Of a stretch of 19,362 bases of DNA, positions 1-19,362 are shown one piece after another. Location of the stretch: positions 1 through 19,362 of IMG/VR virus record IMGVR_UViG_2695420739_000013, one strand, 5' to 3'. The translations under genes and the position numbers were made by a program. The notes beneath the pieces were generated by a model that had not been told where the DNA came from, made no database searches, and was given only the letters and a program-made list of their open reading frames with translations. How positions within the stretch are numbered: the stretch's first letter is position 1; every line of letters starts with the position of its first letter. This DNA comes from a virus. Its lineage: Duplodnaviria > Heunggongvirae > Uroviricota > Caudoviricetes.

Positions 1-24
1 CTTGCAGTTGCCAGACCGCAAGGT

Positions 25-140: not shown

Positions 141-150
141 GCTTGCTGAA

Positions 151-2149: not shown

Positions 2150-2154
2150 GTTTG

Positions 2155-3273
2155 TCAAATAACCAACTTAACCCATTCCTGACCTCGGGTATCGTTATAG
2201 CGATCGGTGGTTGCCTGGACTTTATGTCCTAGTAAGGTTTTTGTATCGATACCCTGTGCACGGTACAGCCGTTCAGATAGAGAGCGTTGTTCATGAAATG
2301 TGGGCGGTGTTTTTCCTGCTGGTGGAATTATTCCAGCCAGATCCCGCGCTTTGGCAAAGTAGTCGCTCAGGTTGTCTTTACTCATCGGCTTTGGTTGTTT
2401 CTGGTGCCGACTATGGATTAGATATGGACTTAATATTCTGTCTCGGCATCCATCAATAACGTCTTTTAACGTTATCCCAATGGCATCACAGCGTAGTGTA
2501 AGCGGTAACGCCAGACGCATTCCGGTTTTTCCCTGGGTGATATGCAAGTGTTCGTTCCACACATCTGAAAAACGCATGTGGCAAATGTCATCACGGCGCT
2601 GACCAGTGACAATCGCAAGAAGCATTGCGTTACGGATAAAGTGTTTTTCCGGCGTTGCGTTGTAAATTTTTTGCCAGTCTTCCAGGGCGAGCCTGGCTCT
2701 GGTTACTTTAGGGATCGGTTTACGGGTAGCCTCCGGAGGATTCCATCCAGGAGGAACTTCCCCTGCATGTTGTGCTTCTTTATAAATATCAACCCATAAT
2801 CCGCGATTTACTCTCGCTGTGCTGACCATGTCTTTATCCAGCCATTCATCCAGTATTAATGCAAAGTCTCTTACTTCCAGGTCTTTCAATGGGTGATTTC
2901 CCAGGCGGGAAACCAGGTATGCAGCCATTCGAGTTTTTTCTTTGTGAGTTGTAGCTGCAATATCTCCATTTTTCAGTCGCGTGTCCTGTATTTTCAGATA
3001 TCGATCAACCCACGCCTTTAATCTGATACCCCGACGTTTTGTTGCTGACGGACTTTCATCAATTTTGCGCATGAAATATTCAGCTTCTGCTGCAGCTATC
3101 CGCTGATTGGCTGTGGAAGCGATTTTTTCTGCCTTACCTTTGTCTGTTCCGAGTCCGTGAAATTTTCCAGTCACAGGATTTTTATACTGGTAGTAAACTC
3201 TGCCAGTTCTGCGATCAAACTTTTCGTAAAGACCGGCTACGTCAGTGCTGTTTTTTCGTGGCCTCGGTGACAT
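2155..3273 (-). CDS. int: Lambda-family tyrosine integrase
   Basis: 372 aa. C-terminal catalytic region (..LAIVTGQRRDDICHMRFSDV.., ..PPTFHEQRSLSERLY.., ..TTDRYNDTRGQEWVKLVI) lines up with lambda Int including the catalytic Tyr context (established family knowledge). Sits next to the host junction. Confidence 0.9.
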   Translation of the reverse strand: MSPRPRKNSTDVAGLYEKFDRRTGRVYYQYKNPVTGKFHGLGTDKGKAEKIASTANQRIAAAEAEYFMRKIDESPSATKRRGIRLKAWVDRYLKIQDTRLKNGDIAATTHKEKTRMAAYLVSRLGNHPLKDLEVRDFALILDEWLDKDMVSTARVNRGLWVDIYKEAQHAGEVPPGWNPPEATRKPIPKVTRARLALEDWQKIYNATPEKHFIRNAMLLAIVTGQRRDDICHMRFSDVWNEHLHITQGKTGMRLALPLTLRCDAIGITLKDVIDGCRDRILSPYLIHSRHQKQPKPMSKDNLSDYFAKARDLAGIIPPAGKTPPTFHEQRSLSERLYRAQGIDTKTLLGHKVQATTDRYNDTRGQEWVKLVI

Positions 3274-3520
3274 GAGTTAAAATCTCCTTCAGTGCATCAT
3301 CATCGCCAGTATGAATTTCCGGCGCAATTCCCGTTTCACCAGGCCCAACAAATACTGCTCGGCGATCTATCAGCCAACGCCCACGAATTTTTTGTGGTCT
3401 TGGAACGATGTATCCTAGTTTTCCGTATTTCACCAGGGTAGTGTTTGTTATTGGGAGACTGAACCGTTTTGGTTTCCACTCGTCGAGCGTTATCAGGTAC
3501 TGTTCGCTCATGGCTATCAC
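3242..3520 (-). CDS. xis: Excisionase (Xis-like); true start probably the internal Met at 3511
   Basis: Small basic ORF directly upstream of int and overlapping its start. YLITLDEW...RGRWLIDRRAV resembles lambda Xis (YLTLQEW...VRRWVRE). Confidence 0.75.
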   Translation of the reverse strand: MIAMSEQYLITLDEWKPKRFSLPITNTTLVKYGKLGYIVPRPQKIRGRWLIDRRAVFVGPGETGIAPEIHTGDDDALKEILTHVTEATKKQH

Positions 3521-3572
3521 TCCGGAACGCGCCAGTTGCAGAATATCAACGACAACTGGCGACGGTTGAACA

Positions 3573-6047: not shown

Positions 6048-6142
6048 TTTGTTTTAACCTCATTACAGATTTCAGGGTGAACGAATCCCTGCCATTGCTG
6101 GCATTTTTAATCCGTTGGTATGGTGTTAATATGGCTGGAGGG

Positions 6143-6331
6143 TTATCCAGCCGGTGTTTCGTTATTCAGGTACAGCGATACTTTTTTTACCGGGAGGCAT
6201 TCACCAGAAATTTTTTGCTCGTCTCTTGCCTGGAGGCAGGATTCTTTACTGGCATAAATTCTGGTAATCACATTCTGTGATTCACCCGTTATAAGAAAAA
6301 CCGTCATCATCAGTGCAAATGCTGAAGTCAT
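6143..6331 (-). CDS. Small protein translationally coupled downstream of dicB (YdfD-like by position)
   Basis: 62-aa ORF whose ATG overlaps the dicB stop (ATGA). The YdfD assignment is by synteny with the K-12 Qin dicB operon only; the sequence itself was not recognised with confidence. Confidence 0.45.
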   Translation of the reverse strand: MTSAFALMMTVFLITGESQNVITRIYASKESCLQARDEQKISGECLPVKKVSLYLNNETPAG

Positions 6332-6516
6332 TGACGTTCTCCGAAAATACCAAGTTCAAGAAGAGCAATTCGGGAAAGTATGGAATTATCATTGAGCAGA
6401 TAAGGCTCATATTTCCTCATATTAATGGCATCTTCAGTAAACTCCCGGTTACTGAGCAGAACACCAATATCAAAACAACCTTCAGACGTATTAACGTTTG
6501 GTAATAACGTTTCCAT
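6328..6516 (-). CDS. dicB: Cell division inhibitor DicB (MinC-activating)
   Basis: Internal Met of the 97-aa track ORF gives 62 aa, METLLPNVNTSEGCFDIGVLLSNREFTEDAINMRK..., matching my recollection of K-12 DicB (MKTLLPNVNTSEGCFEIGV...). GAGGA Shine-Dalgarno 7 nt upstream. Lies directly downstream of dicF. Confidence 0.75.
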   Translation of the reverse strand: METLLPNVNTSEGCFDIGVLLSNREFTEDAINMRKYEPYLLNDNSILSRIALLELGIFGERQ

Positions 6517-6534
6517 TATCGCGTCCTCAACAAT

Positions 6535-6680
6535 GAATTTTGTGATGCGGTGCCTGGTGCCTCCAGGTGACGTTAACCAGTTAACAATTAACGCCGGATA
6601 CAGAGAATCCACCCATAACACTGTTTTTGGTTTTAACTGTTCCGCGTGCGCTCAGCCGCATTCACCGCATCACAAAATTC
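6535..6680. repeat. 18-19-bp perfect inverted repeat (6535-6552 GAATTTTGTGATGCGGTG / 6663-6680 CACCGCATCACAAAATTC) enclosing ~110 bp between dicF and dicB
   Basis: Seen in sequence. In the minus-strand dicB-operon transcript the arms would form a long-range stem immediately 3' of dicF. Confidence 0.6.
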
Positions 6681-6687
6681 ACTTTAA

Positions 6688-6743
6688 AAACGGCGGCAGA
6701 GCAGTCACGGAGTAAAACTGATACCGCCAAACGTCACCAGAAA
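6688..6743 (-). ncRNA. dicF: DicF small RNA (ftsZ-repressing sRNA of the dicB operon)
   Basis: The minus-strand sequence UUUCUGGUGACGUUUGGCGGUAUCAGUUUUACUCCGUGACUGCUCUGCCGCCG followed by U-run matches the K-12 DicF sequence as I recall it, differing at about one position. Confidence 0.75.
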
Positions 6744-7019
6744 ATTGATAACAGAGGGCGTTGCAGCGGGGTTGTCACTTAAGCGTATGGTCAACCTGAC
6801 AACCCGGTGTCCTCAACGGGGGAAGGAATAACCCCGCCATACTTACCGCCGCGCCATTTCGCGGGTTGCCACAACCGGAAGCGCACGGTCGAATTAAATT
6901 TAACGACACCGTACAGTGAGACGAACTTCGCCGTGCGCTTTCGTGTTGTGTGCCTGCTTTTAACCACGTCAGGCGAGGTGGTATCCTTCTTATCCCGAAT
7001 AACCAAGAAGGAAATCTAT

Positions 7020-7220
7020 ATGACTAAAGAAGAATTTGTCTCTTATATTTTTGATAAAACGGTTGAAATGTATGCCGCTACTTACGGGTCCTGTAATCCT
7101 CTGAATAAACCAGAGGGGAAAGATGATTTCGACAAAATTTACCGCTTCTTGGAGGACCGCTATATCAAAAGGTTAGAGGACGCAGGGATCAAATCCCCAG
7201 TGAAGTCACCATTGTCCTGA
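7020..7220 (+). CDS. Hypothetical small protein (66 aa), antisense to the dicB-operon direction
   Basis: ATG preceded by AAGGAAA 8 nt upstream; protein-like composition. It is convergent with, and overlaps by 32 bp, the 3' end of the minus-strand ORF 7189-7566, so only one of the two may be real. Confidence 0.3.
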   Translation: MTKEEFVSYIFDKTVEMYAATYGSCNPLNKPEGKDDFDKIYRFLEDRYIKRLEDAGIKSPVKSPLS

Positions 7221-7566
7221 GAACTTGCAGGACGTCATGATCGTAACTTCCATCCAAACCGCGACGGCAAATTGCTTCTCGTATTACCGGAAGCAGTTCG
7301 CTGGAAATCTCGGTGCATATTTCACCTGATAATACGCTTGGCTCAAGTGAGAATATTGGTGAACTTACGGTCTTGGTCTCGACAGTTTCAGAGTCAGTGC
7401 CAACATTATAAAGCTCAACGAAAGCGGTCTTGATTTTCCGGGCCAGATCTTTTGCTGGCTCGCTTGCAATATCTTTCCCGATTTCTCGCAGCACAGAATG
7501 CAATGTATGAGCTGCTGTTTTCTGTACATCAGACGGTAAATCTTTAAATTCCATCGTCAGCCTCAT
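7189..7566 (-). CDS. Hypothetical prophage early protein (dicB-operon position)
   Basis: 125-aa ORF coupled to the upstream ORF (ATGA overlap). No motif recognised. Confidence 0.5.
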   Translation of the reverse strand: MRLTMEFKDLPSDVQKTAAHTLHSVLREIGKDIASEPAKDLARKIKTAFVELYNVGTDSETVETKTVSSPIFSLEPSVLSGEICTEISSELLPVIREAICRRGLDGSYDHDVLQVLRTMVTSLGI

Positions 7567-7811
7567 CAGTCAGTGTTTCTGGCTAACCAGCAACGCGCGC
7601 CAGATCCGGTTTTAAACGTTTTGCTTTTGGTATATGTCATCGCGGTGAACGTACCGCCCTGGTTGGGGAACACGCCGTACACCAGAGATTCGTTGTTGCC
7701 AAGATCGATAGTATCCATGTTGACCTCATTTCCCCTTAACGCCGGGGTAGCGGAACTGTTTGCTGAGAACACCGTGCGGTGTCTTGATGGATCGTAATTT
7801 AGTTTTCTCAT
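7566..7811 (-). CDS. Hypothetical prophage early protein, first gene downstream of the repressor
   Basis: 81-aa ORF. Its start lies within an operator-like inverted repeat. No motif recognised. Confidence 0.5.
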   Translation of the reverse strand: MRKLNYDPSRHRTVFSANSSATPALRGNEVNMDTIDLGNNESLVYGVFPNQGGTFTAMTYTKSKTFKTGSGARCWLARNTD

Positions 7812-7846
7812 GAATATTGGTCAAGTGCTTTTAATGAGAAAACTCA
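7802..7846. promoter_or_regulatory. Operator-like inverted repeat (AGTTTTCTCA ... TGAGAAAACTCA) in the promoter region between the repressor gene and the early operon
   Basis: Seen in sequence: 10-bp arms 7802-7811 and 7835-7846 share the TGAGAAAACTCA motif also found at 8368-8381. Confidence 0.35.
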
Positions 7847-7909
7847 ATATTTAATGCAAAATAAAGCCAATACATTGAAATGTAAGGCTTTAAAATTTGT
7901 GAAGGGGGG

Positions 7910-8317
7910 TTATTGATGTTTGTTACGTTTGCGAGCTTCTAGTAGCTCGGTGAATAGGCGATTAAAATTCTCAACGCGGGCACGGAGTTCGCTGATTTGT
8001 GCTTGCTGCTCTGATTTTGGAAGTGCGCGATACAATCGCAACATCTCCAACTCATCTTCCGATAAGTCTAAGGCGCTGTTGAGTGCAACTGGTGGATCTG
8101 GTGTTTTATCCTCGTCACCAAACAGTATCCAAGTTGGTGAACATTGCAATACCTCAGCCAGGCGATGCAAATTTTGCCCGCGCGGGGCTGTATGGTCGCT
8201 TTCCCATAGTGAAATTGATGAGCCAGATACGCCAGCAGCTTTGCTTAAATCGTTTTGACTTAAACCAACCTGTTTGCGTCTTTCTCTAATTCGTTGACCT
8301 AAAGTTTTCTCGTTCAT
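7910..8317 (-). CDS. dicA: DicA-like HTH (XRE-family) prophage repressor
   Basis: 135 aa with an N-terminal HTH (GQRIRERRKQVGLSQNDLSKAAGVS). ..LQCSPTWILFGDEDK.. and the C-terminal ..RARVENFNRLFTELL.. closely match my recollection of K-12 DicA. Confidence 0.85.
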   Translation of the reverse strand: MNEKTLGQRIRERRKQVGLSQNDLSKAAGVSGSSISLWESDHTAPRGQNLHRLAEVLQCSPTWILFGDEDKTPDPPVALNSALDLSEDELEMLRLYRALPKSEQQAQISELRARVENFNRLFTELLEARKRNKHQ

Positions 8318-8367
8318 ATTTAGATATCTTAATAACCCTTGACTTGAGATTCCTTGAGTGATTACTA

Positions 8368-8381
8368 TTGAGAAAACTCAA
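8368..8381. promoter_or_regulatory. Operator-like palindrome TTGAGAAAACTCAA in the repressor/cro divergent intergenic region
   Basis: Seen in sequence: TTGAG-N4-CTCAA. Additional TTGAG half-sites at 8344 and 8355, and a TTGACT -35-like hexamer nearby. Confidence 0.35.
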
Positions 8382-8394
8382 CTTTGGAGGGGTG

Positions 8395-8622
8395 ATGTTT
8401 AAATCAGACGTAATTAATTTTTATGGGACGAAAGCCAAAGTAGCGAAAGCTGCTGGTGTTGATCCATCTGCTGTTTCTCAATGGGGGGAACTGGTTCCTG
8501 AAGGTCGCGCGATGCGCCTGCAAGAGGCATCCGGCGGGGAACTTCAGTACGACCCCAAAGTTTATGACGAATATCGTAAGGCAAAGCGGGCGGGGCGGTT
8601 GAACAATGAAAATCACCCCTGA
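8395..8622 (+). CDS. Cro-like regulator (DicC/YdaS family), divergent from the repressor
   Basis: ATG at 8395 with a GGAGGGG Shine-Dalgarno; the track ORF starts at TTG 8368. Small protein in the Cro position relative to the DicA-like gene. The family assignment is mostly positional. Confidence 0.7.
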   Translation: MFKSDVINFYGTKAKVAKAAGVDPSAVSQWGELVPEGRAMRLQEASGGELQYDPKVYDEYRKAKRAGRLNNENHP

Positions 8623-9157
8623 ACAGGTTTGTGAGGCTCTGGATGCCTGGGTATGCCGACCAGGAATGACACAGGAGCAGGCGACGATATTAATCACGGA
8701 AGCATTCTGGGCTCTGAAAGAACGCCCGAACATCGATGTTCAACGCGTCACGTTTAATGATGGCGAGGTTGATCAACGGGCGCTGGGCGTTAACCGGGTG
8801 AAGATATTCGAACGCTGGAAAGCTATCGACACCAGGGATAAGCGGAAAAAATTCACGGCGCTGATTCCGGCAATTATGGAGGCTATCCGAATTAGTGATT
8901 TCAGGCTGTATCGTGAGATCAGTGATGGAAAAAGCATTACGTACATGATCGCCGGATTAAACAAAGAATATGGCGATGTGGTGGAGTCCGGGCTGCTTTT
9001 TGCGGATCCAGCTGTTGTGGAACGTGAGACTGACGAGCTTATAGAAAAAGCTATTGCTTTCAAGCATGCGTATCGTCAGCAATATCAATATTACTTTGCA
9101 GATAAACAAATGTCTGCCAGGGGTTCGTATGAGTATCGATGCACTACGATGGGCTAA
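8606..9157 (+). CDS. YdaT-like prophage protein
   Basis: 183 aa immediately after the Cro-like gene. ..FTALIPAIMEAIRISDFR.. resembles the Rac YdaT segment I recall (..ALLPAILAIAPNDLR..). Low-certainty family call. Confidence 0.6.
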   Translation: MKITPEQVCEALDAWVCRPGMTQEQATILITEAFWALKERPNIDVQRVTFNDGEVDQRALGVNRVKIFERWKAIDTRDKRKKFTALIPAIMEAIRISDFRLYREISDGKSITYMIAGLNKEYGDVVESGLLFADPAVVERETDELIEKAIAFKHAYRQQYQYYFADKQMSARGSYEYRCTTMG

Positions 9158-10160
9158 AAAGGTGAAAACCGGCAGTTCATCCAGTAAGTCAGTATTGACC
9201 TGGCTTGCTGATATGTGCGGTGCCGATTTGTGTGCATACCCGTCTGTATCTGCCCTGGCAGAAGTAACGGAACTGAACAAAAAGACAGTGCAGGACAGCT
9301 TACGACACCTGATGGAGATTGGGTTAATTGTTGATACCGGTGAGAGAAAAGGCAGAACAAAGCAAATTGTGGTGTACCGACTTATCGGTGTAGAAGAAAG
9401 TGTTGCCGAGCCTGAATACACCCAAAAACGGGAGTCTTTAAAGGTGGGTAAAATTGGTGCTGTTAATAAAAACAGTACCGAAAATGGTTATGTTTCAGCA
9501 CAAAACAGACCCAAAAACGGAACTCTTAGCTGCATGGAAAATAACCAAAGACACCCAAATTTTCCATCAAAGACACCCAAAAACGGATCACGGAACCCAA
9601 AGGAACCCAAAGTTCTAAACCCCACACATAACGCACGCGAGAGTGCTCTGACCAGTGAGCAGGAAGTTTTGTCGTTACAGGCAGTATTCCTGGATGGCCT
9701 GAGAGAACCCATCGGAAAATTTCTGATGACCGATAGCTGGCATCCGTCGCGGGATTTTCGACGACGGGCTGCGTTGTGGGGGATGGCTTTGCCGGAGCCG
9801 GAATTTACACCTGCTGAACTTGCCGCATTCCGGGATTACTGGAGTGATGAGGGGAAAGTGTTTACGCAGATTCAGTGGGAGCAGAAATTCGCCCGTCACG
9901 TAAATCACGTCAGGGCGCAGGTTAAACCAGTCAGCAAGGGGGTGAACCATGCAGCAGCACCAGGGGGCACCGCATCACGGGCAGTTCAGGAAATTCGGGC
10001 AGCACGTGAGCAGTGGGAACGTGAAAACGGATTTATCCGCGACGGAAACGGCGTGGAAGCTGTGGGAACTCATGGGGGAGGTTTATTCGAACCGCTGGAC
10101 CCAGAAGAACGGGGCCGCACCTTCGAAGCTCTGGATTGCACAGATTGGTGCGATGACTGA
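9129..10160 (+). CDS. Replication initiation protein (lambda O-like N-terminal HTH, DnaT-like C-terminal region)
   Basis: Likely start MSIDALRWAKK at 9129; the track ORF starts at 9054 inside the upstream gene. N-terminal winged HTH (..SVSALAEVTELNKKTVQDSLRHLMEIGLI..). Iteron-like repeats lie inside the gene. Confidence 0.75.
   Translation: MSIDALRWAKKVKTGSSSSKSVLTWLADMCGADLCAYPSVSALAEVTELNKKTVQDSLRHLMEIGLIVDTGERKGRTKQIVVYRLIGVEESVAEPEYTQKRESLKVGKIGAVNKNSTENGYVSAQNRPKNGTLSCMENNQRHPNFPSKTPKNGSRNPKEPKVLNPTHNARESALTSEQEVLSLQAVFLDGLREPIGKFLMTDSWHPSRDFRRRAALWGMALPEPEFTPAELAAFRDYWSDEGKVFTQIQWEQKFARHVNHVRAQVKPVSKGVNHAAAPGGTASRAVQEIRAAREQWERENGFIRDGNGVEAVGTHGGGLFEPLDPEERGRTFEALDCTDWCDD
9421..9615 (+). 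repeat. Iteron-like direct repeats (ACCCAAAAACGG and variants, at least 5 copies) inside the replication-initiator gene; putative phage origin
   Basis: Seen in sequence: cccaaaaacgg (9421), acccaaaaacgg (9511), gacacccaaa (9551), gacacccaaaaacgg (9572), aacccaaagg and aacccaaag (9594-9613). Confidence 0.4.
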
Positions 10161-10614
10161 GCAGCAAATCCGACAGGTCTGCCGCCAGTGCATGGACCGC
10201 TGCCGGGAGGGTGAAACATGGCCTCCGGACCTGGCTGAGTTTGTGGCACTGATTTCGGAAAGCGGAGCCAATCCATTCGGTCTGACGGTGGATGCTGTGA
10301 TGGAGGAGTACCGCCGCTGGCGCAATGAGTCCTGGCGATACGACGGAAGTGATAAGTACCCGTGGTCTCAGCCTGTGCTGTATCACATTTGCCTCGAGAT
10401 GCGTTCAAAGGGGGTTGAGCGCCAGATGACCGAAGGGGAATTAAAACGGCTTGCAGAACGGCAGCTGACGAAATGGGCAAAGCATGTTAGTAACGGCCTG
10501 AGCGTTCCGCCAGTCCGGCGACAACTGGCGGCACCCAAACGCCCGTCGGGGCCAACGCCAATTGAGTTGCTGAAACAGGAATATGAACGCCGGAAAGCGG
10601 CTGGGCTTGTTTGA
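9949..10614 (+). CDS. Replication protein P-like (helicase-loader family); start uncertain (9949 or a downstream Met such as 10153)
   Basis: The C-terminal half (..PPDLAEFVALI.., ..YDGSDKYPWSQPVLYHIC.., ..EGELKRLAERQL..) parallels lambda P (..SPGQFVAWC.., ..YPDAESYPWKS.., ..DAELRRKAADEL..). The 5' ~210 bp overlap the O-like gene in another frame. Confidence 0.65.
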   Translation: MQQHQGAPHHGQFRKFGQHVSSGNVKTDLSATETAWKLWELMGEVYSNRWTQKNGAAPSKLWIAQIGAMTEQQIRQVCRQCMDRCREGETWPPDLAEFVALISESGANPFGLTVDAVMEEYRRWRNESWRYDGSDKYPWSQPVLYHICLEMRSKGVERQMTEGELKRLAERQLTKWAKHVSNGLSVPPVRRQLAAPKRPSGPTPIELLKQEYERRKAAGLV

Positions 10615-10720
10615 GTTGAGAAGTAATTTTTACCGGGAGGAAATTTATGGAGACTGTTTTTGACGCACTGAAAGCAATGGGAAAAGCCACATCCATAGAA
10701 CTTGCTGCGCGCGTGAAGAA

Positions 10721-10921
10721 GTGCTGAACGAACTATGGGAACTGAAAAAGGCTGGTTTTGTTGATAAAAGCGCGTACACCTGGCGTGTGGCTGATAACAA
10801 CGTTCAGCAGGAACAGCCAGCGCAGGCAGAACTGCCGGAAGAAACCACCACAATGAGTGAAGTTATGCAGCGCATACTGGCATTTTATCAGGGAAATGTT
10901 CGATATTTTAGACGTTACTAG
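10721..10921 (+). CDS. Hypothetical winged-helix-like small protein; possibly the 3' part of a frameshifted gene beginning at ATG 10647
   Basis: A 26-codon ORF (10647-10727, good GGGAGG Shine-Dalgarno) and this GTG-initiated ORF lie in different frames and join into one plausible ~92-aa protein across a -1 shift at 10719-10723. Confidence 0.35.
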
Positions 10922-11289
10922 ATTAAAGAGCATTAGTTCAGATGTGAATTGACATTGTGTGGCACAGGGTTGGGCTAGCGTGGGGGTTTGCTTTGTGTAA
11001 GAAACGGATGCTCTGCAAATTACTACTAATGCTTAATGTTAGTCTGATCTGCTCCCCGATGATTAATACACCGCTATGTTAGTAATGTCTGTAGATCGCT
11101 GTGTGTTGCATCCATCGGTTGACCCCACAGTCCAAACCAGACTGTCAGCTTTGATTCGATTCTATCTACTCAACCTGTCAGGTAATGTCTGAGCTAATAC
11201 ACAGAGTACGGCTATCGCGAACTTTAAGCTAGGTATCTGATACGCACCGTTCACTTGTTTGTACTTCTTGCACTGACTAGCTATCGTGC

Positions 11290-11322
11290 GCAGTTATTTA
11301 TAGGTAATCTCCAGTGTATAAT
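11290..11322 (+). promoter_or_regulatory. Candidate sigma70 promoter for the 281-aa island gene
   Basis: TATAAT at 11317-11322 with a weak -35 about 17 bp upstream, then AGGAGG and ATG at 11361. Pattern-based only. Confidence 0.3.
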
Positions 11323-11360
11323 TTTCCAACTTATGGGAGATTGTAAAACAGGAGGAATAT

Positions 11361-12206
11361 ATGAGGAAAAAATCGTTTGGACGTTGCCCGTTTGATTTCG
11401 ACGAAGATGTAAAAAAAATAGCCGCGATAAATAAATATATCCATGCGAAATTTGAGAGGCATAAAAATAAAATAGATAACCTAAAGGGGGTGGAACAAAA
11501 ATTGATGGTTTTACATTACTTTAATGTACTGAATGAACTTAGTAATCAGGCTATATTTTCTTTGAGTACCGGAGCCTTTTCAGCATCGGAAGTATTAACT
11601 AGAGTTATAATGGAACAGGCTGCCAATCAATTTTATATAGCAATTGATGATGGAAAAAATGCACAAGCATTACTCAAGGGTAGTAAGAAATTAGTTCATA
11701 GTAATGGGAAACGGTGGCTGGAGTGTTTAAAATCCAAAGAAATGACTAATCCAGCAGCAGATGAAAGGATTCGTATCGGAAAAGAGCTAACTGATATGTT
11801 TAATAGATTGTGGCCAAATACACCTGAATATCCTGGAACCAAAAAGCTTTTCGAAGTAATTGGCTGGGAAACACACTATCATGCCTATTACGTCCCTCTT
11901 TGTGATTCAATACATACATTCTCTGATGATATGGCAAATATAGTATCTCTATATAATGCAATCCAAAGCGATAAAACTACTGCTATCGAACTCACTCTTG
12001 CAGTTAAACAAGAAAATAAACGGCTGGCAATTTATAATGTCGTAATTGCTATTGGCCTGCGGTGTGAGGCCTTAGTAAATGTATTTAACTCTTTAGGTTA
12101 TCGAGATATTATAACTGAAATGGCGCCAACAATAGATGCAGTCAACCAGATTATAATTCGATATGATGATTTCGAACATTCCAGAATTTTTATTGTCAAT
12201 AATTAA
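11361..12206 (+). CDS. Hypothetical protein (281 aa), no recognisable catalytic motif; first gene of the AT-rich accessory island
   Basis: Long ORF with a perfect AGGAGG Shine-Dalgarno 7 nt upstream. Visibly AT-rich and Lys/Asn/Ile-rich, contrasting with the flanking prophage genes. Confidence 0.75.
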   Translation: MRKKSFGRCPFDFDEDVKKIAAINKYIHAKFERHKNKIDNLKGVEQKLMVLHYFNVLNELSNQAIFSLSTGAFSASEVLTRVIMEQAANQFYIAIDDGKNAQALLKGSKKLVHSNGKRWLECLKSKEMTNPAADERIRIGKELTDMFNRLWPNTPEYPGTKKLFEVIGWETHYHAYYVPLCDSIHTFSDDMANIVSLYNAIQSDKTTAIELTLAVKQENKRLAIYNVVIAIGLRCEALVNVFNSLGYRDIITEMAPTIDAVNQIIIRYDDFEHSRIFIVNN

Positions 12207-12259
12207 TTGGCAGAATTCGTACATGCACAACAACTAGTTATAGTTGACCTATTTCGCTC

Positions 12260-12828
12260 TTGAGAGACAACCATACTCAAATCTTCCACATTGCAGGAGA
12301 TTTGAGTATGAATACGTCACCGAGGAACAAAGACAGTATCATAGGCCCAAAAAGACCACTTCAGATATCTCATATCTGGGGGCTCCAAATCCGGCTTGAA
12401 CTGGAAGGTAAAACGCGTGATTTAGCTCGGTTTCAAGCAGAGCTACGGTGCTGCAACTGAAAAACTGGCAGTCCTATCCAATTTGAGATAACCAAAGGGA
12501 CAAGAGAAGCTGTTTCTGCATTGATAAAGCTTGGCAATTTACGCAGTAAAGACTACTTGTTCCGATCTCGGGTCGGTACTAACCAACACATATCAATCCT
12601 GCAATATAACCGAATCTTTCATAGGGGGGAGAAAAGCTTGGTCTCGAAGATTCGCTTTACAGCACACATTCCATGAGAAGAACAAAACCTTGCCTTGTCT
12701 GCAAGAAAACTAAGAATCTCCGGGTGATCCAACTTCCGTTGGGCCATAAGAAAACGGAAAGCACAGTTCGTTATCTGGGTATAGAAGTTGATGATGCATT
12801 AGAGATCTCTGAATCGATCGAAGTCTAA
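12260..12828 (+). pseudogene. Decayed tyrosine recombinase/integrase: C-terminal catalytic domain only, with an in-frame TGA and a frameshift
   Basis: The stitched translation ..KTGSPIQFEITKGTREAVSAL..DYLFRSRVGTNQHISILQYNRIFHRG/GEKLGLEDSLYSTHSMRRTKP..LGHKKTESTVRYLGIEVDDAL.. carries the H-x-x-R and LLGH...Y motifs of tyrosine recombinases. Stop at 12458-12460; frame change within a G6 run at 12624-12629; no N-terminal domain. Confidence 0.6.
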
Positions 12829-13240
12829 AGCTGTCAGGGCTGCAGCAGCAGCCCTGTGCCAAGAGCGTACCAATATATGTCTCAAAAAATTGGGCACAGG
12901 TCAATATCAATACCAACAACTCTGATTGTGCTCATGTGATTTACTCCTGTAGAAAACGCAGACAGTAAAAATATTTCACTGGCTGCTTCAGACAGGGCGT
13001 CCATCATATCATTACATAACAATAGCGGGGCACGATATCTAGACATGCAGCAACGATGGACATAGAATGAGTACAATCAAAAGCATGTTTAACTACTTTA
13101 ATTTAAAAATCTTAGAATCTTAGGTGTAGAGTTCAATACTTAGTTACATACCCTTTTGAAAGCATCACAAATCATAACTATGAGCCTGTTAAAGGCATAG
13201 GTATTCTTAATTAAGAGCATTTTAATGAGAGAAAAATAAA

Positions 13241-14614
13241 ATGAAAAGACTATATTATACCCATCATGATAGTCGAACCTTAAAACTTGCTATAGAAGGT
13301 GATGTTTCTGATAATGCGAATATTTTTACAGTAATTGTAGGTAAAAATGGCGTTGGAAAAAGCAGATTGTTATCTCAGATTGCTAAAGACTGTATTCAAG
13401 ATGTTCATTTCTTGAAAACTTTTAATCCATTATTTGACAGAGAAATAACACCAAAGTTAATTGCCGTATCTACCAGCCCATTCGATAAATTCCCTCCAGG
13501 GCGTAGGTCATTAAATCACCAAAGGAAAGAAAATAATTATCGCTATGTGGGTATGCGTGGAGAAGGCCCCTTCGGCGTATCAAATGCCGTATCCCTTTTA
13601 TCTTCAGCAGCGAGAGGTTGGCTAGAGAAACTTGCTTATTCAGAAAATCCTGCAAATTTACTCGATGTTTTTCATTCTATTGATTTTGAGCCCCATATAG
13701 AGTTTGTATTTAAACCAACTTACAACGGACCGGACACTCCTGACTATAACTTCATTGGTGTATATTCAGATGAGATATTAACGGAAGTTAAGGAGTTATA
13801 TTTAAAATACAATATAAAAATTGACAGGAAGAATATTGAGAGTCTCTTAAAGTTAAACTCCGAATCACGTCATGATATTTACGAAGCACTGGTTGAAATT
13901 AATCGATTTGAACCTGAACGTAGGGCTGTAACCTTGTCAGTCGATTTTACCAATGGTGAAACATTGGTTGGCTCGACTTATGCGAATAATTATTTTTCTA
14001 GATCAATTCTTAAACTTATGAACGCTGGCTTCATGAGATTGATGGATATGCGACTCATAAAAAAAAGCTATGGTCCCATGTCACTTAAACGTGCGAGCTC
14101 GGGAGAACAATGTTTATTAGTGATGTTGCTTGGAATTGCAGGGCATATAACTGATGGTTCTATAATATTAATTGATGAACCGGAAATAAGCTTGCATCCT
14201 CGATGGCAGGAAGAGTTTATCATTATGTTAACAAAAGCATTTTTAACTTACTCAGGTTGTCAATTCATAATTGCAACTCATTCACCACAAATAATATCCA
14301 ATTTGCCGAATAAAGGTTGTTATATAACATCTTTGTCGAAAAGTTATCTTTATAAAGCAAAATACTTTAGCAACCGGTCTGCAGACTATCAACTTGCGGA
14401 ACTATTTGATGCCCCTGGCATTATGAATGAATACATTGCCAGGTTAGCTTTCAATTTACTTTCAAAAGTTAAGACTGCTAAGTTAGTAACAGATGATAAT
14501 TGGCGTGAATTAAAACAACTCCAACTTCTCCTTGAAAACGTTAATAGTAATGACCCTATTAATGAACTCGTAAATTCCGTATCTCAGGTGTGTGAAATTT
14601 ATGCCAAAAATTAA
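13241..14614 (+). CDS. ABC-type (AAA_15/AAA_21-like) ATPase, Septu PtuA-like
   Basis: 457 aa. Walker A GKNGVGKS (residues 34-41), ABC-signature-like SSGEQ, Walker B IILIDEPE, D-loop SLHP, H-loop ATHSP. AT-rich. Its 3' end overlaps the following HNH gene. Confidence 0.85.
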   Translation: MKRLYYTHHDSRTLKLAIEGDVSDNANIFTVIVGKNGVGKSRLLSQIAKDCIQDVHFLKTFNPLFDREITPKLIAVSTSPFDKFPPGRRSLNHQRKENNYRYVGMRGEGPFGVSNAVSLLSSAARGWLEKLAYSENPANLLDVFHSIDFEPHIEFVFKPTYNGPDTPDYNFIGVYSDEILTEVKELYLKYNIKIDRKNIESLLKLNSESRHDIYEALVEINRFEPERRAVTLSVDFTNGETLVGSTYANNYFSRSILKLMNAGFMRLMDMRLIKKSYGPMSLKRASSGEQCLLVMLLGIAGHITDGSIILIDEPEISLHPRWQEEFIIMLTKAFLTYSGCQFIIATHSPQIISNLPNKGCYITSLSKSYLYKAKYFSNRSADYQLAELFDAPGIMNEYIARLAFNLLSKVKTAKLVTDDNWRELKQLQLLLENVNSNDPINELVNSVSQVCEIYAKN

Positions 14615-15236
14615 AAATCCAATTAGATTCAGCGCAGAGTCATTAGATATTATTGAGAAAAAATTGTCTTCTCCAGATTTTAAGCATACCAACTGGGGAG
14701 ATGATGATTTGCAAGTTCTCCGTGCAGAAATTAGAAATCATTACAGAGAAGAACAAAAGCTAGAATGTGTATATTGTCATGAGCCTATTGGGGTAAGAGC
14801 TGCACAAGCTGCTCCTATAGAGCATATTGTGCCAAAATCTCAATATCTATGTTTTATTTTTGAACCTAAGAATCTATGTGTAGTATGTCCTGACTGCAAT
14901 GAATTCAAAGGTAAAAATGAAGTGTTATTTGAACCCGTAATAAATGGGGGGCGGCGCAAAAACTATCCAACTGCATCTGCATCATTTCGCATCGTTCATC
15001 CACATATAGATGATTATGAGATGCATATTATAAAAGCAAATCGTGTTTATGTGGACAAAACACCTAAAGGGCACTATACCATTGGAATATGTAAACTAAA
15101 TAGATTTTTTCATTATTTTGGGATGTGTGATGAATTTGTTAATGATGCAAAAATTGCTGAGACAAATGAAAATTTTTTCAAAAAAGGTAGTATTACTACT
15201 AATGAATTATTGGATGATGACATTCATTTGATTTAA
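14601..15236 (+). CDS. HNH endonuclease, Septu PtuB-like
   Basis: ATG at 14601 (track ORF from GTG 14592) overlaps the ATPase gene by 14 bp. HNH-type motifs CVYCH...EHIVPKS...CVVCPDCN (two CxxC pairs flanking the catalytic His). Confidence 0.85.
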   Translation: MPKIKNPIRFSAESLDIIEKKLSSPDFKHTNWGDDDLQVLRAEIRNHYREEQKLECVYCHEPIGVRAAQAAPIEHIVPKSQYLCFIFEPKNLCVVCPDCNEFKGKNEVLFEPVINGGRRKNYPTASASFRIVHPHIDDYEMHIIKANRVYVDKTPKGHYTIGICKLNRFFHYFGMCDEFVNDAKIAETNENFFKKGSITTNELLDDDIHLI

Positions 15237-15549
15237 CTATGAATTATTATATTGTAAAGTAATCAGGTAAGATATGTTAGACAGTGAGACTATTGCCTTA
15301 CAGAATTCATTATTCTTATGGATCGCCTTTCTGACTGATTTCATATTGGCGGGGTAACGGGAGTTAAGTAGAATGGCTGCGGGTGCTTGAGGCTATCTGT
15401 CTCAGGCATGAACACCAAAGGCAGATAGAGAAAAGCCCCAGTTAACATTACGCGTCCTGCAAGACGCTTAACATTAATCTGAGGCCAATTTCATGCTAGA
15501 CACATGTAGGTTAGCCTCTTACGTGCCGGAAGGCAAGGAGAAGCAGGCT

Positions 15550-15705
15550 ATGAAGCAGCAAAAGGCGATGTTAATCGCCCTGATCGTCATCTGTTTAACC
15601 GTCATAGTGACGACACTGGTAACGAGGAAAGACCTCTGCGAGGTACGAATCCGAACCGGCCAGACGGAGGTCGCTGTCTTCACAGCTTACGAACCTGAGG
15701 AGTAA
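15550..15705 (+). CDS. hokD: Hok/Gef-family type I toxin (HokD/RelF-like), 51 aa
   Basis: MKQQKAMLIALIVICLTVIVTTLVTRKDLCEVRIRTGQTEVAVFTAYEPEE matches K-12 HokD as I recall it, differing at about one residue. The in-frame upstream extension from 15493 is what the ORF track reports as 70 aa. Confidence 0.85.
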   Translation: MKQQKAMLIALIVICLTVIVTTLVTRKDLCEVRIRTGQTEVAVFTAYEPEE

Positions 15706-15774
15706 GAGACCCGGCGAGGGAGAAATCCCTCGCCACCTCTGATGTGGCAGGCATCCTCAACGCACCCGCACTTA

Positions 15775-15805
15775 ACCCGCTTCGGCGGGTTTTTGTTTTT
15801 ATTTT
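15775..15805 (+). terminator. Rho-independent terminator downstream of hok
   Basis: Seen in sequence: CCCGC-ttcg-GCGGG followed by TTTTTGTTTTTATTTT. Confidence 0.5.
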
Positions 15806-15921
15806 CAACGCGTTTGAAGTTCTGGACGGCGCCGGAATAGAATCAAAAATACTTAAGTAGCGCGCAGGGATAAGAGGGATGGTCCCTTAAAGGGGAGAGC
15901 TAATTATCCGGAAGGATTCTG

Positions 15922-16173
15922 ATGATGAACATCGAAGAACTGCGTAAAATTTTTTGTGAAGATGGCCTCTATGCTGTGTGCGTTGAAAATGGAAATCTTG
16001 TTAGTCATTACCGCATTATGTGTTTGCGAAAGAATGGGGCTGCGTTAATTAATTTTGTGGATGGTCGAGTGACAGACGGATTTATCTTGCGCGAAGGTGA
16101 GTTTGTCACTTCATTACAGGCACTGAAAGAGATCGGAATAAAAGCAGGCTTTTCAGCTTTTGCAGAAGAATAA
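15922..16173 (+). CDS. Small prophage protein, Rem-like by position (Qin order hokD-rem-ydfU)
   Basis: 83-aa ORF with a GGAAGGA Shine-Dalgarno. The assignment rests on size and synteny, not on confident sequence recognition. Confidence 0.55.
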   Translation: MMNIEELRKIFCEDGLYAVCVENGNLVSHYRIMCLRKNGAALINFVDGRVTDGFILREGEFVTSLQALKEIGIKAGFSAFAEE

Positions 16174-16239
16174 ACTCATCTACAATCTTGCGCGGGGCTG
16201 AACTCCCGCTGAGTAACACCGTGCCACCGGAGAAAACCG

Positions 16240-16518
16240 ATGGCACGCAACGTAAAATATTACAATTCTGATAATTCGCCCGTTCTTGCCTGCACGCACG
16301 AGCGGTATTCTCACGCATTCAAGTCTGAATGGTTCCAACACCCTCCATGTACTGAAGAGCAGGCTGAATGGATAATTCAGTGTTACCGCAGGCGCGGATA
16401 CGAGGTTAAGAAAGCCCTTAGTCTCGACTACCGTCACTGGATAATCTCCGTCAGGCTTCCTTACTCTGAACGCCCACCGCGTCCGTCTCGCACATTCCAG
16501 CAACGCATCTGGAGGTAA
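16240..16518 (+). CDS. Hypothetical prophage protein (92 aa)
   Basis: ORF with a GGAG Shine-Dalgarno, directly abutting the downstream DUF968 gene. No motif recognised. Confidence 0.45.
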   Translation: MARNVKYYNSDNSPVLACTHERYSHAFKSEWFQHPPCTEEQAEWIIQCYRRRGYEVKKALSLDYRHWIISVRLPYSERPPRPSRTFQQRIWR

Positions 16519-16519
16519 C

Positions 16520-17569
16520 GTGCGGGTATTACTTCGACCTGTTCTGGTACCGGAACTCGGGCTGGTGATCGTTAAGCCGGGCCGTGAATCCATGCCAGTA
16601 TTCCACAATACCCGGGTATTGATGGAGCCGGAACCGAAAAGCATGCGTAATCTGCCGTCCGGGGTCGTTCCTGCCGTTCGCCAGCCGCTGGAGGAAGACA
16701 AAACATTGCTGCCGTTTTTCAGTAACGCACGGGTGATTCGTGCTGCTGGTGGTGCAGGTGCATTGTCTGACTGGCTGTTGCGCCATATTAAATCCTGCCA
16801 GTGGCCACACGGCGATTATCATCACAGCGAAACTGTCATTCACCGTTATGGTACCGGCGCAATGGTGTTGTGCTGGCACTGCGACAACCAGCTGCGTGAC
16901 CAGACATCCGAATCACTCGAGCAACTTGCTCATCAAAACCTGTCAGCATGGATGATTGACGTCATCGGTCACGCAATAAGCGGTACGCAGGAGCGTGAAT
17001 TATCTTTGGCTGAATTATCCTGGTGGGCGGTCCGCAATCAGGTGGCGGACGCGCTACCGGAAGCGGTATTACGTCGTTCGCTGGGGGTGCGTGCGGAAAA
17101 AATCCGCTCAATGTACCGTGAAAGCGACATCGTGCCGGGAGAGCAGACCGCCACCAGCATACTGAAGCAGCGCACAAAAAATATTGCGTTACTGCCTGAC
17201 GTCCACCAGCAACAGAACCCACCACAGGAAAAGACGGTGGTCAGCATTGCCGTTGATCCTGAGTCTCCGGAATCTTTCATGAAACGACCTAAACGTCGCC
17301 GCTGGGTTAACGAGAAATACACACGCTGGGTGAAGACTCAGCCGTGTGCGTGTTGTGGTAAGCCAGCCGACGATCCCCATCACCTGATTGGTCATGGTCA
17401 GGGCGGAATGGGGACAAAATCTCACGATATTTTCACGCTACCGCTGTGTCGGGAGCATCACAACGAGCTTCATGCGGATCCGCTGGCGTTCGAAGAAAAG
17501 CATGGCTCTCAGGTTGATTTAATTTTTCGTTTTCTTGATCACGCCTTTGCAACTGGCGTGCTTGGGTAA
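16520..17569 (+). CDS. DUF968-family prophage protein (YdfU-like) with a C-terminal Cys/His-rich HNH-like region
   Basis: 349 aa, GTG start. C-terminus ..CACCGKPADDPHHLIGHG...LPLCREHHNELH.. Position upstream of rusA and Q matches Qin-type prophages. Confidence 0.7.
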   Translation: MRVLLRPVLVPELGLVIVKPGRESMPVFHNTRVLMEPEPKSMRNLPSGVVPAVRQPLEEDKTLLPFFSNARVIRAAGGAGALSDWLLRHIKSCQWPHGDYHHSETVIHRYGTGAMVLCWHCDNQLRDQTSESLEQLAHQNLSAWMIDVIGHAISGTQERELSLAELSWWAVRNQVADALPEAVLRRSLGVRAEKIRSMYRESDIVPGEQTATSILKQRTKNIALLPDVHQQQNPPQEKTVVSIAVDPESPESFMKRPKRRRWVNEKYTRWVKTQPCACCGKPADDPHHLIGHGQGGMGTKSHDIFTLPLCREHHNELHADPLAFEEKHGSQVDLIFRFLDHAFATGVLG

Positions 17570-17581
17570 AAGAGGTGACTG

Positions 17582-17953
17582 ATGCTCATAGATTTGGTTT
17601 TACCTTACCCGCCGACGGTGAACACTTACTGGCGACGCCGTGGCAGCACATATTTTATCTCGGAGGAGGGAAAGCGTTATCGCCGGGCTGTGGCGCTTAT
17701 TGTTCGCCAGCAGCGGCTGAAATTAAGCCTGTCCGGAAGGCTGGCGATAAAGGTGATTGCAGAGCCACCGGATAAGCGCCGTCGTGACCTGGACAATATC
17801 CTGAAAGCACCACTGGATGCGCTGACGCATGCCGAACTTCTCATAGACGACGAGCAGTTTGATGAAATCAATATTGTGCGCGGTCAGCTCGTTCCTGGTG
17901 GGCGACTGGGCGTGAAGATTTACGAAATCACAGGTGATAACGATGGCGCGTGA
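17582..17953 (+). CDS. rusA: Holliday-junction resolvase RusA
   Basis: 123 aa. ..[19 protein letters not shown].. and the overall pattern match RusA (K-12 has ..DRRRRDLDNLQKAAFDALT..). Confidence 0.85.
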
Positions 17954-18329
17954 TATTCAGCAGGTTATGGAACGGTGGGGGGCTTGGGCTGCAAACACTC
18001 ATGAAGATGTATCCTGGGCGTCGATCGCTGCTGGTTTTAAAGGGTTAATTCCGTCGAAAGTGAAATCACGTCCTCAGTGTTCTGATGATGATGCAATGAT
18101 AATTTGTGGCTGTATGGCCCGGTTAAACAAGAAAAATCAGGATTTGCACGATTTGCTGGTGGATTATTACGTATATGGAATGACTTTTATGAGTCTGGCA
18201 CGGAAACTTGGATGTTCGGATACCTGTGTTGGTAAGCGCCTGCAGAAGGCGGAAGGGGTTATCGATGGCATGTTGATGATGCTTGATATCCGGCTGGAGA
18301 TGGACAGATATGTAGAACGAATTATGTAG
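17943..18329 (+). CDS. Late-gene antiterminator Q (QuuD/phage-21-type)
   Basis: Start at ATG 17943 overlapping the rusA stop (track ORF from GTG 17934). [35 protein letters not shown]...[18 protein letters not shown]... closely matches K-12 QuuD as I recall it. Confidence 0.8.
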
Positions 18330-18334
18330 GTGCT

Positions 18335-18364
18335 TGACCATATACATTGTCCGGGGCTATATTC
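18335..18364 (+). promoter_or_regulatory. Candidate Q-dependent late promoter (pR'-like)
   Basis: TTGACC at 18335-18340, an 18-bp spacer, then TATATT at 18359-18364, immediately downstream of Q. Confidence 0.45.
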
Positions 18365-18425
18365 CTCGCGCGTCAGCAAAATCTGGCGTCGGGATTGGAA
18401 CCCCGGATATTCAACCGCGACAGAC

Positions 18426-18450
18426 ACACGCCGCGAGCGTGTTTTTTATT
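18426..18450 (+). terminator. tR'-like intrinsic terminator ending a short leader transcript (Q antitermination target)
   Basis: Seen in sequence: ACACGC-cgcga-GCGTGT then TTTTTTATT, about 60-80 nt downstream of the candidate late promoter. Confidence 0.5.
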
Positions 18451-18611
18451 GTCGTAAGCACACGCACATCTGAATAATGGTGGGGCGTATGGGGGAGCTG
18501 AAAGGCTCGCCGGTTGGTTGATCCGGTAGTTCCAACCCTGTACGTCTCACCACCCAATGATTGGAACCTGACGGTGGTGATAGTTAAATCCATCAACCAG
18601 AGGGCGTTATC

Positions 18612-19172
18612 ATGACGACTCAAGTTTCTGTCGAAACTCTTTCCCCGATCACACACAACCAGCTCCCAGTTGTCACTACAGAGTTACTGGCCAAACTATA
18701 TGGCTGTAGCGTCGAGTGTATTCATAGAAATCACCACCGTAATAAAGAGCGATTTGCAGAAGGGAAGCACTACATAATTGCGAAAGGCGCAGACCTCCAA
18801 AATTTGAAAATCTCTTTAAGGGATTTTCAAACGATCGCCCCAAATGTCCGAAAGCTCATACTCTGGACAGAACGCGGAGCAGCCCGTCACGCCAAAATGC
18901 TCGAAACCGATCAGGCGTGGGAAGTATTCGAAAAACTGGAAGACTGTTATTTCAACCAAAAACAACCACCAGCGGCACAAAACACATCTATCGAAAATGA
19001 TGGATGCGCATTACTGATCCACTTCGATAAACATGGTCAGGTTGAGTTCACGGAAAAGGTGCCCGCCGATGCGATGGTATGCACTCTGGAACGGTTTAAA
19101 TTTTATCTGGAGCAACACGGGTGGATCGTTGCCCGTAAAGAGCAACTGGTGGAGCGGTTGATGCGGCTTTAA
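18612..19172 (+). CDS. Hypothetical protein in the Q-proximal moron position; possible ORF6N/KilA-N-like N-terminal DNA-binding domain (weak)
   Basis: 186-aa ORF with a GAGGG Shine-Dalgarno, followed by an intrinsic terminator. The family guess comes from a loose N-terminal pattern only. Confidence 0.65.
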   Translation: MTTQVSVETLSPITHNQLPVVTTELLAKLYGCSVECIHRNHHRNKERFAEGKHYIIAKGADLQNLKISLRDFQTIAPNVRKLILWTERGAARHAKMLETDQAWEVFEKLEDCYFNQKQPPAAQNTSIENDGCALLIHFDKHGQVEFTEKVPADAMVCTLERFKFYLEQHGWIVARKEQLVERLMRL

Positions 19173-19247
19173 AAATTTCCCCCGAACGCTTTACGATCGT
19201 AAAAAGTTGAATATACTGTTAAGAGTGGTTACTACGCCGCACAGCTT

Positions 19248-19273
19248 AAACCCGCCGATGAGCGGGTTTTTTT
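19248..19273 (+). terminator. Rho-independent terminator after the 186-aa gene
   Basis: Seen in sequence: AAACCCGC-cgatga-GCGGGTTT followed by a 7-T run. Confidence 0.55.
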
Positions 19274-19362
19274 GTGCACAGAAAACCCCCAGCTAGGCTG
19301 GGGGTTCCGGAAAGCTTTCAGCTTTGAGCCAGTTATTAAAACCCCTTTTGATTTGTTAAAAC
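19268..19362. repeat. Right copy of the 95-bp perfect inverted repeat (partner 25-119); truncated by the window end
   Basis: Seen in sequence: exact reverse complement of 25-119. The match reaches the final base of the window, so the repeat may be longer. Confidence 0.85.

Follow-up and report, generated by a model that had tools for sequence, protein, structure and literature searches.

An AT-Rich Segment Upstream of hok in a Qin-Type Lambdoid Prophage as a Probable Exchangeable Cargo Carrying a Predicted Type I Septu Operon

Introduction

The question raised by the locus analyzed in this work is what an AT-rich block is doing between the replication genes and hok of a lambdoid prophage, and how it came to be there. 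The locus lies in a stretch of 19,362 nucleotides (nt) of a Caudoviricetes record (IMG/VR IMGVR_UViG_2695420739_000013, positions 1 to 19,362), the whole of which is hereafter called the window; an original prediction made on this DNA had described positions 10922-15492 as an accessory island in a variable cargo slot. The data reported below indicate that the segment is, in all likelihood, an exchangeable composite cargo consisting of a DUF5677 gene, an inactivated recombinase, and a complete type I Septu operon (ptuA-ptuB), housed in a recombination-prone slot of Qin-family prophages; ptuAB would defend the lysogen, and the cargo would have spread by recombination between prophages.

Composition and Rarity of the Segment

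Gene order and annotation identify the prophage as a Qin/DicA-type lambdoid one, integrated beside potC/potD, with a backbone running from the repressor through a cro-like gene, YdaT, DnaT-like/O, and P to the cargo, and then to hokD, rem, DUF968, RusA, and Q. This is in agreement with the Qin-type order that had been proposed (replication genes, then hok-rem-DUF968-rusA-Q), and the 281-amino-acid (aa) open reading frame (ORF), the recombinase remnant, and the ATPase/HNH pair that had been placed inside the segment were all found there.

The compositional distinctness claimed for the segment was borne out by the drop in windowed GC content and in GC content at third codon positions (GC3). Sliding-window GC is 0.32-0.44 across approximately 11000-15500 versus approximately 0.45-0.58 on each side; in 500-bp windows the mean is 0.370 +/- 0.034 inside the segment and 0.488 +/- 0.037 outside, and the lowest-GC 4,552-bp window of the whole sequence begins at about 10851. 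Positions 10794-15345 have a GC content of 36.9%, the left backbone 47.9%, and the right backbone 50.1%; the cargo as delimited below (11010-15308, 4.3 kb) has 36.6%. Similarly, GC3 is 0.27 in the DUF5677 gene, 0.28 in ptuA, and 0.21 in ptuB, versus 0.47-0.61 in the neighbouring phage genes (P 0.61, DUF968 0.55).

The full 5.5-kb region was found in only 19 of the 5,426 complete Escherichia coli genomes searched, and the 19 island copies are 99.4-100% identical; a query made of the island plus its flanks found some match in 5,060 of the same genomes, mostly in the flanks. These data bear on the idea that the segment is simply part of the conserved backbone, its low GC content reflecting how phage modules normally vary. 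Such variation does exist, since other backbone stretches are AT-rich (6001-6750, about 0.41; rem, 0.40). However, the rarity of the region next to nearly ubiquitous flanks, together with the different genes found in the slot of a sister prophage at the same attachment (att) site, refutes this idea, to which we assign a negligible likelihood. Conservation of these genes as backbone in related prophages, which would have spoken against a variable slot, was looked for and is not the case; the slot proposed in the original prediction is upheld by the rarity of the region and by at least eight other cargos in the same frame.

The ptuA-ptuB Operon

The right-hand part of the cargo is occupied by two overlapping genes preceded by a spacer:

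13241..14614, + strand: ptuA, Septu ABC-type ATPase, 457 aa (PADLOC, Pfam, motifs)
14601..15236, + strand: ptuB, Septu HNH nuclease, 211 aa, 14-nt overlap with ptuA (PADLOC, Pfam, motifs)
12866..13240, + strand: AT-rich spacer upstream of ptuA with promoter-like sites (consensus match)

PtuA matches PADLOC model PDLC00283 (E = 1.2e-165) with residues 2-455 over profile positions 3-447 of 448, as well as Pfam AAA_21 (2.3e-20) and AAA_15 (1.4e-16). It exhibits a Walker A motif G34KNGVGKS (34-41), a signature S286SGE (286-289), a Walker B motif I308ILIDE (308-313), and an H-loop T346HS (346-348), all of them invariant in four aligned Pseudomonas orthologues. PtuB matches PADLOC model PDLC00325 (E = 1.1e-83) and, above the cut-off, Pfam HNH (4.5e-5); its C56xxC59, E74-H75, N91, and C96xxC99-N100 are invariant in the five aligned Pseudomonas orthologues. 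H75 and N91 are the positions essential in the E. coli Septu system EcB88, in which Walker A/B are essential too, the phenotype is abortive-infection-like, and tRNA-Tyr is cleaved (PMC13096335). The closest solved relatives of the two proteins are PtuA/PtuB and retron PtuAB, and the PtuB profile matches solved PtuB and retron HNH chains. The overlap and synteny of the two genes are kept in six Pseudomonas loci at 40-66% identity, where the ptuAB pairs are also lower in GC than their surroundings.

Hence, the sequence features of a type I Septu system are all present (ATPase motifs, HNH motifs, and adjacent, co-oriented, and co-inherited genes forming a stand-alone pair), and, as judged from its sequence, the pair is a complete type I Septu operon with intact catalytic motifs. 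The original prediction had seen the ATPase/HNH pair, without recognising it as Septu. The allele shares with the type I systems described so far (Doron et al. 2018; EcB88, PMC13096335) the two-gene operon with overlapping frames, the ATPase with Walker A/B, signature, and H-loop, and the HNH protein with the zinc-binding CxxC...CxxC arrangement and H75/N91; it differs from them in belonging to the sub-clade PDLC00283/PDLC00325, far from the solved PtuAB, and in having its nearest relatives from other species in Pseudomonas. No such allele was found in sequenced phages, the best match, to a Vibrio phage, covering part of the protein at 39% identity, and our literature search found no description of the Septu system of the enteropathogenic E. 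coli (EPEC) strain E2348/69.

The pair might instead belong to another ATPase-nuclease system, such as a retron type I-A effector, PARIS, or an OLD/Gabija-like system. Indeed, PADLOC also returned weaker matches to AriA (2.9e-22), ATPase_I-A (2.1e-20), and HNH_I-A (3.2e-8), and the best PDB sequence matches of the ATPase are AriA and retron PtuA chains. However, the PtuA and PtuB models fit over their full length and more than 100 orders of magnitude better, and the ATPase is paired with an HNH nuclease instead of the Toprim-type AriB, which removes PARIS from the candidates. As for the type I-A retrons (Ec78/Eco7: reverse transcriptase (RT), msr-msd, PtuA, and PtuB), the effector pair is homologous and the NCBIfam PtuA/PtuB models match it weakly; in contrast to them, the ORF list of the island contains no RT, and Rfam (E <= 0.1) found neither a retron RNA nor another structured RNA in it, returning only sok and a sub-threshold isrK-like match after hok. 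With neither RT nor msr-msd RNA in or near the island, the pair is therefore assigned to the stand-alone type I Septu systems and not to the retron I-A effectors, and any of these other affiliations appears extremely improbable.

Within the spacer, a promoter-like TAGACA-17-TAGAAT sequence lies at 13040-13068 (10 of 12 consensus matches). The spacer also contains an element of approximately 120 bp (12902-13021) that has 77-87% identity to unannotated intergenic DNA in many E. coli genomes (among the 837 with any match to the query), for example in FDAARGOS_144, where an AraC-family regulator and an autotransporter gene flank it, and that matches no Rfam or Pfam model.

Alternative Cargos in the Same Slot

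In Qin-family lambdoid prophages the slot spans the interval from the 3' end of the DUF977 gene to the hok promoter. Its alternative cargos were sampled down a ranked listing, spread over its length, of matches to the span from P to DUF968, and their contents were taken from the annotation:

L007: retron Ec67-family RT-endonuclease directly upstream of hokD
L008: QueH, followed by Kiwa KwaA/KwaB
L009: FRG-domain protein (PDC-S15)
L010: SMEK protein, methyltransferase, and a hypothetical protein
L011 (O157:H7): DUF1627, a fimbrial pseudogene, and the paa adhesin gene
L012: DUF4209 protein (PDC-S39)
L029: two hypothetical genes, a short integrase gene, and a hypothetical gene
SCU-484, at the same potC att site: DUF1627-DUF977-DUF4406-Ea22-like phage genes
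K-12 Qin: relBE with flxA/ydfV

PADLOC found known or candidate defence genes, mostly full length, in five of the six alternative cargos tested: a retron I-C RT-Toprim protein (E = 2.7e-221), KwaA (1.3e-101), KwaB (2.8e-159), PDC-S15 (6.7e-99), PDC-S39 (8.4e-103), and an Argonaute-associated N-terminal domain (1.7e-20). The four lowest-GC defence-type cargos have GC contents of 0.33-0.38, the DUF4209/PDC-S39 cargo 0.44, and the phage-type cargo 0.48. Thus, at least nine cargo types, many of them defence-related, lie between the same borders in what is a sample and not a census, as is characteristic of a prophage hotspot.

Defence systems, Septu, Kiwa, and retrons among them, likewise abound in the hotspots of P2-like phages and P4-like satellites (Rousset et al. 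2022, PMC9122126). In both cases conserved phage genes flank a short interval whose differing content is rich in defence genes; the slot described here differs in belonging to Qin/DicA-type lambdoid prophages, in its place within the early-right transcription unit, where the replication genes precede it and hok/sok follows, and in also taking virulence genes (paa) and ordinary phage genes. Our literature search found no description of the DUF977-hok slot.

The annotation confirms that relBE lies directly upstream of hokD in K-12 Qin, and the idea that the island occupies the same slot holds insofar as accessory genes stand upstream of hokD in both prophages, which also share the downstream order hokD-rem-DUF968/ydfU-Q. 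Nevertheless, the two insertions are not exactly equivalent. Since K-12 homology restarts only at position 15536, the relBE (relBEF) insertion replaced the hok promoter, leader, and sok, all of them preserved in the window, and extends to 14 nt before the hokD start; K-12 Qin has moreover lost the O/P-type replication genes.

A side observation concerns locus L008, where positions 3090-3183, after QueH, contain a second, diverged copy of the hok promoter and of the first approximately 45 nt of the hok leader (compared with 5161 onward). This duplication suggests that modules were stacked by successive recombination at the hok border.

Borders of the Cargo

The borders were set by pairwise comparison with related prophages, which is sharper than composition, and resulted in the following features:

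10647..10921, + strand: left-flank scar, 5' part of DUF1627 fused to the last approximately 70 bp of DUF977 (RefSeq, homology)
10853..11009, + strand: conserved left border, DUF977 3' end and approximately 88 bp downstream (blastn)
11010..15308, + strand: cargo proper (homology borders, composition, rarity)
15309..15380, + strand: conserved right border, 3' end of a small ORF followed by the hok promoter (11-sequence junction alignment)
15381..15705, + strand: intact hok/sok locus, with leader/sok at 15381-15555 and the hokD coding sequence (CDS) at 15550-15705 (Rfam, RefSeq)

On the left, homology to SCU-484, the sister prophage at the potC site, stops at 10793, inside the DUF1627 gene, and homology to the intact DUF1627 of O157 stops at 10831; RefSeq annotates 10647-10849 as a frameshifted, truncated DUF1627 gene. 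Positions 10853-10921 then match the DUF977 3' end in five other loci. Because DUF1627 homology stops and the DUF977 3' end follows, the sequence identifies the 66-aa ORF at 10721-10921 as the scar of a deletion of backbone genes, by which the beginning of DUF1627 was fused to the terminal part of DUF977. The left border has 78-87% identity to L007, L008, L009, L010, and L012, and all these matches stop at 10997-11009. On the right, homology restarts at 15309-15316 in four loci (L007, L009, L010, and L012) and at 15346-15368 in SCU-484, O157:H7, and the main match of L008 (L008 at 15368). The homology of related prophages therefore stops at about 11009 and restarts at about 15309-15316, which delimits the cargo as approximately 11010-15308. 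The interval originally predicted, 10922-15492, was close to it; it included on the left approximately 90 bp of the conserved flank downstream of DUF977, and on the right approximately 180 bp that correspond to the hok promoter and part of the leader/sok region.

The cargo truncates a small ORF upstream of hok, the 3' end of which is common to most loci. The promoter-like site of hok has its -35 box at 15346-15351 and its -10 box TAGAAT at 15369-15374, and the sequence common to all the loci in the junction alignment begins at this -10 box and the 5' end of the hok mRNA. The Rfam sok model RF01794 matches 15381-15555 (117 bits versus a gathering score of 59), and the 51-aa Hok ORF (15550-15705) is preceded by the conserved leader/sok region; hok/sok is backbone, not cargo.

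Just past hokD, positions 15714-15795 give a sub-threshold Rfam match to the IsrK small RNA (25.7 bits versus a gathering score of 50), which overlaps a strong terminator-like hairpin (15774-15791) and is probably just the hok terminator. In EPEC E2348/69 an IS481-family element (L003 15785-16873; window 15536-15541) stands between the hok leader/sok and the hokD CDS, and probably uncouples hokD from its regulatory region; its insertion point is the one at which K-12 Qin homology restarts after relBE (window 15536). As for the window itself, its positions 1-119 and 19291-19362 match sequence at or beside IS200C copies in related genomes (L001 and L003), the first 119 bases being inverted relative to L001, and the window ends may be IS200 copies or their flanking sequence.

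The DUF5677 Gene

The left part of the cargo contains an intact gene and, downstream of it, a decayed one:

11361..12206, + strand: DUF5677 gene, 281 aa, intact (Pfam PF18928, 3.4e-9)
12254..12865, + strand: decayed short tyrosine-recombinase unit with a pseudo-CDS at 12308-12828 (tblastn, shared edges)

The 281-aa product had been considered an orphan; instead, it belongs to the DUF5677 family (Pfam) and matches phrog_4167, whose function is unannotated, over its full length. The AlphaFold2 model is all-helical with a predicted local distance difference test (pLDDT) score of 95. The nearest allele, at 89% nucleotide identity, is carried by P2-like prophages and is flanked there by the tail-fibre assembly and tail sheath genes, a location that we take to be the Z/fun moron position of P2; the ratio of nonsynonymous to synonymous substitutions (dN/dS) relative to this allele is 0.39, and homology to the P2-like prophage cargo begins at 11044. 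More distant homologues are lone genes in unrelated chromosomal contexts.

PADLOC and NCBIfam gave no match for the protein and PADLOC none for 43 relatives, which led us to reject DUF5677 as an already known defence gene. In the one experimental test found in the literature, five ORFs gave defence against the six phages used, and the DUF5677 ORF, from Enterococcus, was not one of them (bioRxiv 10.1101/2025.10.07.681051). A conserved partner gene was rejected as well, the neighbours differing in every distant homologue examined. At L025 5756-6004, an 82-aa ORF shares 4 nt with the beginning of a DUF5677 homologue of 41% identity and could be a small partner gene; no such ORF was seen in the other contexts. 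In the P2-like prophage of E. coli S88, which carries DUF5677, an opposite-strand gene annotated as "GTP pyrophosphokinase" (L005 1999-3078) stands among the tail/baseplate genes; it could represent another inserted moron or defence gene, perhaps one of the CapRel type.

We also considered that the DUF5677 gene, the recombinase, and PtuAB form one multi-gene system in which DUF5677 is an accessory or sensor of Septu, given that the DUF5677 module lies directly upstream of this Septu allele and on the same strand in 19 of 19 genomes. Since these copies are nearly identical, their shared gene content goes back to one recent origin rather than to selection acting repeatedly. Moreover, DUF5677 is found in P2-like prophages that lack Septu and stands alone in unrelated chromosomal contexts, the six Pseudomonas ptuAB loci have no DUF5677 homologue, and in the window DUF5677 and ptuA lie about 1 kb apart with a pseudogene in between. 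This idea is thus largely refuted and has very little left in its favour.

The Short Tyrosine-Recombinase Unit

RefSeq annotates the recombinase remnant as frameshifted with an internal stop, and tblastn with the intact 194-aa protein of S88 revealed in the window copy a deletion of approximately 73 bp, in which the first catalytic Arg is lost, in addition to frameshifts and stops. A 10-bp inverted repeat (12272-12310) spans the ribosome-binding site of the unit, and a GC-rich hairpin (12834-12855) lies just past the stop codon. Intact copies code for proteins of 194-200 aa, 93% identical, which consist of the Pfam Phage_integrase catalytic domain only. A FimB/FimE-type invertase was rejected, as BLASTP against K-12 FimB gave no alignment; the NCBIfam DNA-invertase models score 20-27 bits (cut-off about 222).

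Copies of the unit lie at window 12254-12865, L005 10233-10853, L028 5993-6700, and L029 5183-5891, and in L031 and L032. The intact ones are highly conserved and have unrelated accessory genes on either side, both in prophages of the P2-like and lambdoid types and in an island of CFT073/ATCC 25922, where the unit adjoins a dynamin-family/RdcB/patatin cluster.

The presence of a recombinase remnant in the middle of the island raises the possibility that the island is a small integrative element, inserted site-specifically by its own, since decayed, tyrosine recombinase. In agreement with this, the intact units of approximately 710 bp have sharp edges, common to L028 and L029, occur in several contexts and in the same slot of another strain, and were found in 912 of the 5,426 E. 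coli genomes (17%). However, no att-like direct or inverted repeats bracket the island or either of its modules, where only short chance matches were seen; most of the alternative cargos at the same borders lack a recombinase; the protein is a catalytic domain of approximately 195-200 aa alone, devoid of arm-binding and core-binding domains; and DUF5677 persists in P2-like prophages in which the recombinase is reduced to a 35-aa stub. We therefore consider such an insertion improbable.

Somewhat less improbable, although still doubtful, is the joint proposal that DUF5677 is an undescribed single-gene anti-phage or inter-phage-competition factor, possibly a helical, HEPN-like enzyme acting through the invariant R81, E85, and H185, that it moves between the tail-region hotspot of P2-like prophages and the hok-proximal one of Qin-type prophages, and that the approximately 710-bp recombinase unit marks or drives cargo exchange.

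Discussion

The comparison of the different contexts indicates that the island is composite and not a single acquisition, because DUF5677 and the recombinase occur together, at approximately 89% identity, without Septu in P2-like prophages. As to how it spread, the same island, at 99.4-100% identity, was found at three prophage att sites (potC, yccA, and tRNA-Ser/mtfA, the last copy lying in an IS3-truncated remnant). Such near-identical copies at three att sites, together with the lack of att-like repeats, argue for a spread by recombination between prophages. The simplest account is that the cargo was assembled by illegitimate joins; it would then have been passed on by homologous recombination via the conserved flanks of co-resident lambdoid prophages rather than by site-specific insertion.

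The way in which the cargo might benefit its host can be outlined as follows. In the lysogen, ptuAB would be transcribed from its own promoter while the early operon of the phage is repressed, and the PtuA ATPase would keep the PtuB HNH nuclease in check. Infection by a second phage would free PtuB; nucleic acid would be cut and the infection aborted, so that the lysogen population would be protected.

Several points weigh against this interpretation of the segment as defence cargo in a defence-rich slot. The similarity of PtuA to the PtuA structure in PDB (8ee4) is confined to the region of the ABC signature, and with the PtuB profile 8ee7 is matched at no better than E = 0.004; phage defence by this allele, which is distant from the Septu systems studied so far, is a prediction, and because of this same distance tRNA-Tyr as its target is an extrapolation. 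The promoter-like sites upstream of ptuA are consensus matches whose number is not above shuffle expectation. Concerning the slot, the cargos were drawn from a ranked listing and are no unbiased census; some cargos are not defence genes (the paa adhesin, Ea22-type phage genes, and QueH); and, according to a survey of Hok loci, hok is not enriched overall near DefenseFinder systems (12% versus 9.4% expected; bioRxiv 10.1101/2025.08.07.668861). Owing to these non-defence cargos and to the lack of enrichment, the slot is to be regarded as a general accessory slot rich in defence genes and not as an exclusive defence hotspot.

Conclusions

No new principle is involved here, since a prophage-borne defence hotspot with a known system is of a known kind. 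What had been an anonymous AT-rich block is now a defined unit, that is, a complete Septu system, as predicted from its genes, in a lambdoid prophage, and the slot that it occupies, bordered by the DUF977 3' end and the hok promoter, is now delimited in a very common prophage family. The less ordinary elements are the DUF5677 gene, also seen in the tail-region slot of P2-like prophages, and the recurring short recombinase unit. In our small sample the majority of the slot cargos are known or candidate defence genes, and slots of this type are productive places to look for new defence systems; among the occupants that are uncharacterised are DUF5677, the set made up of SMEK and a methyltransferase, and hypothetical genes of Ec-042-T20-MAC. 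This Septu system is carried by commensal as well as pathogenic E. coli, one of the latter being the EPEC reference strain E2348/69, and a Septu system borne by a prophage may help to account for differences among strains in their sensitivity to phages.

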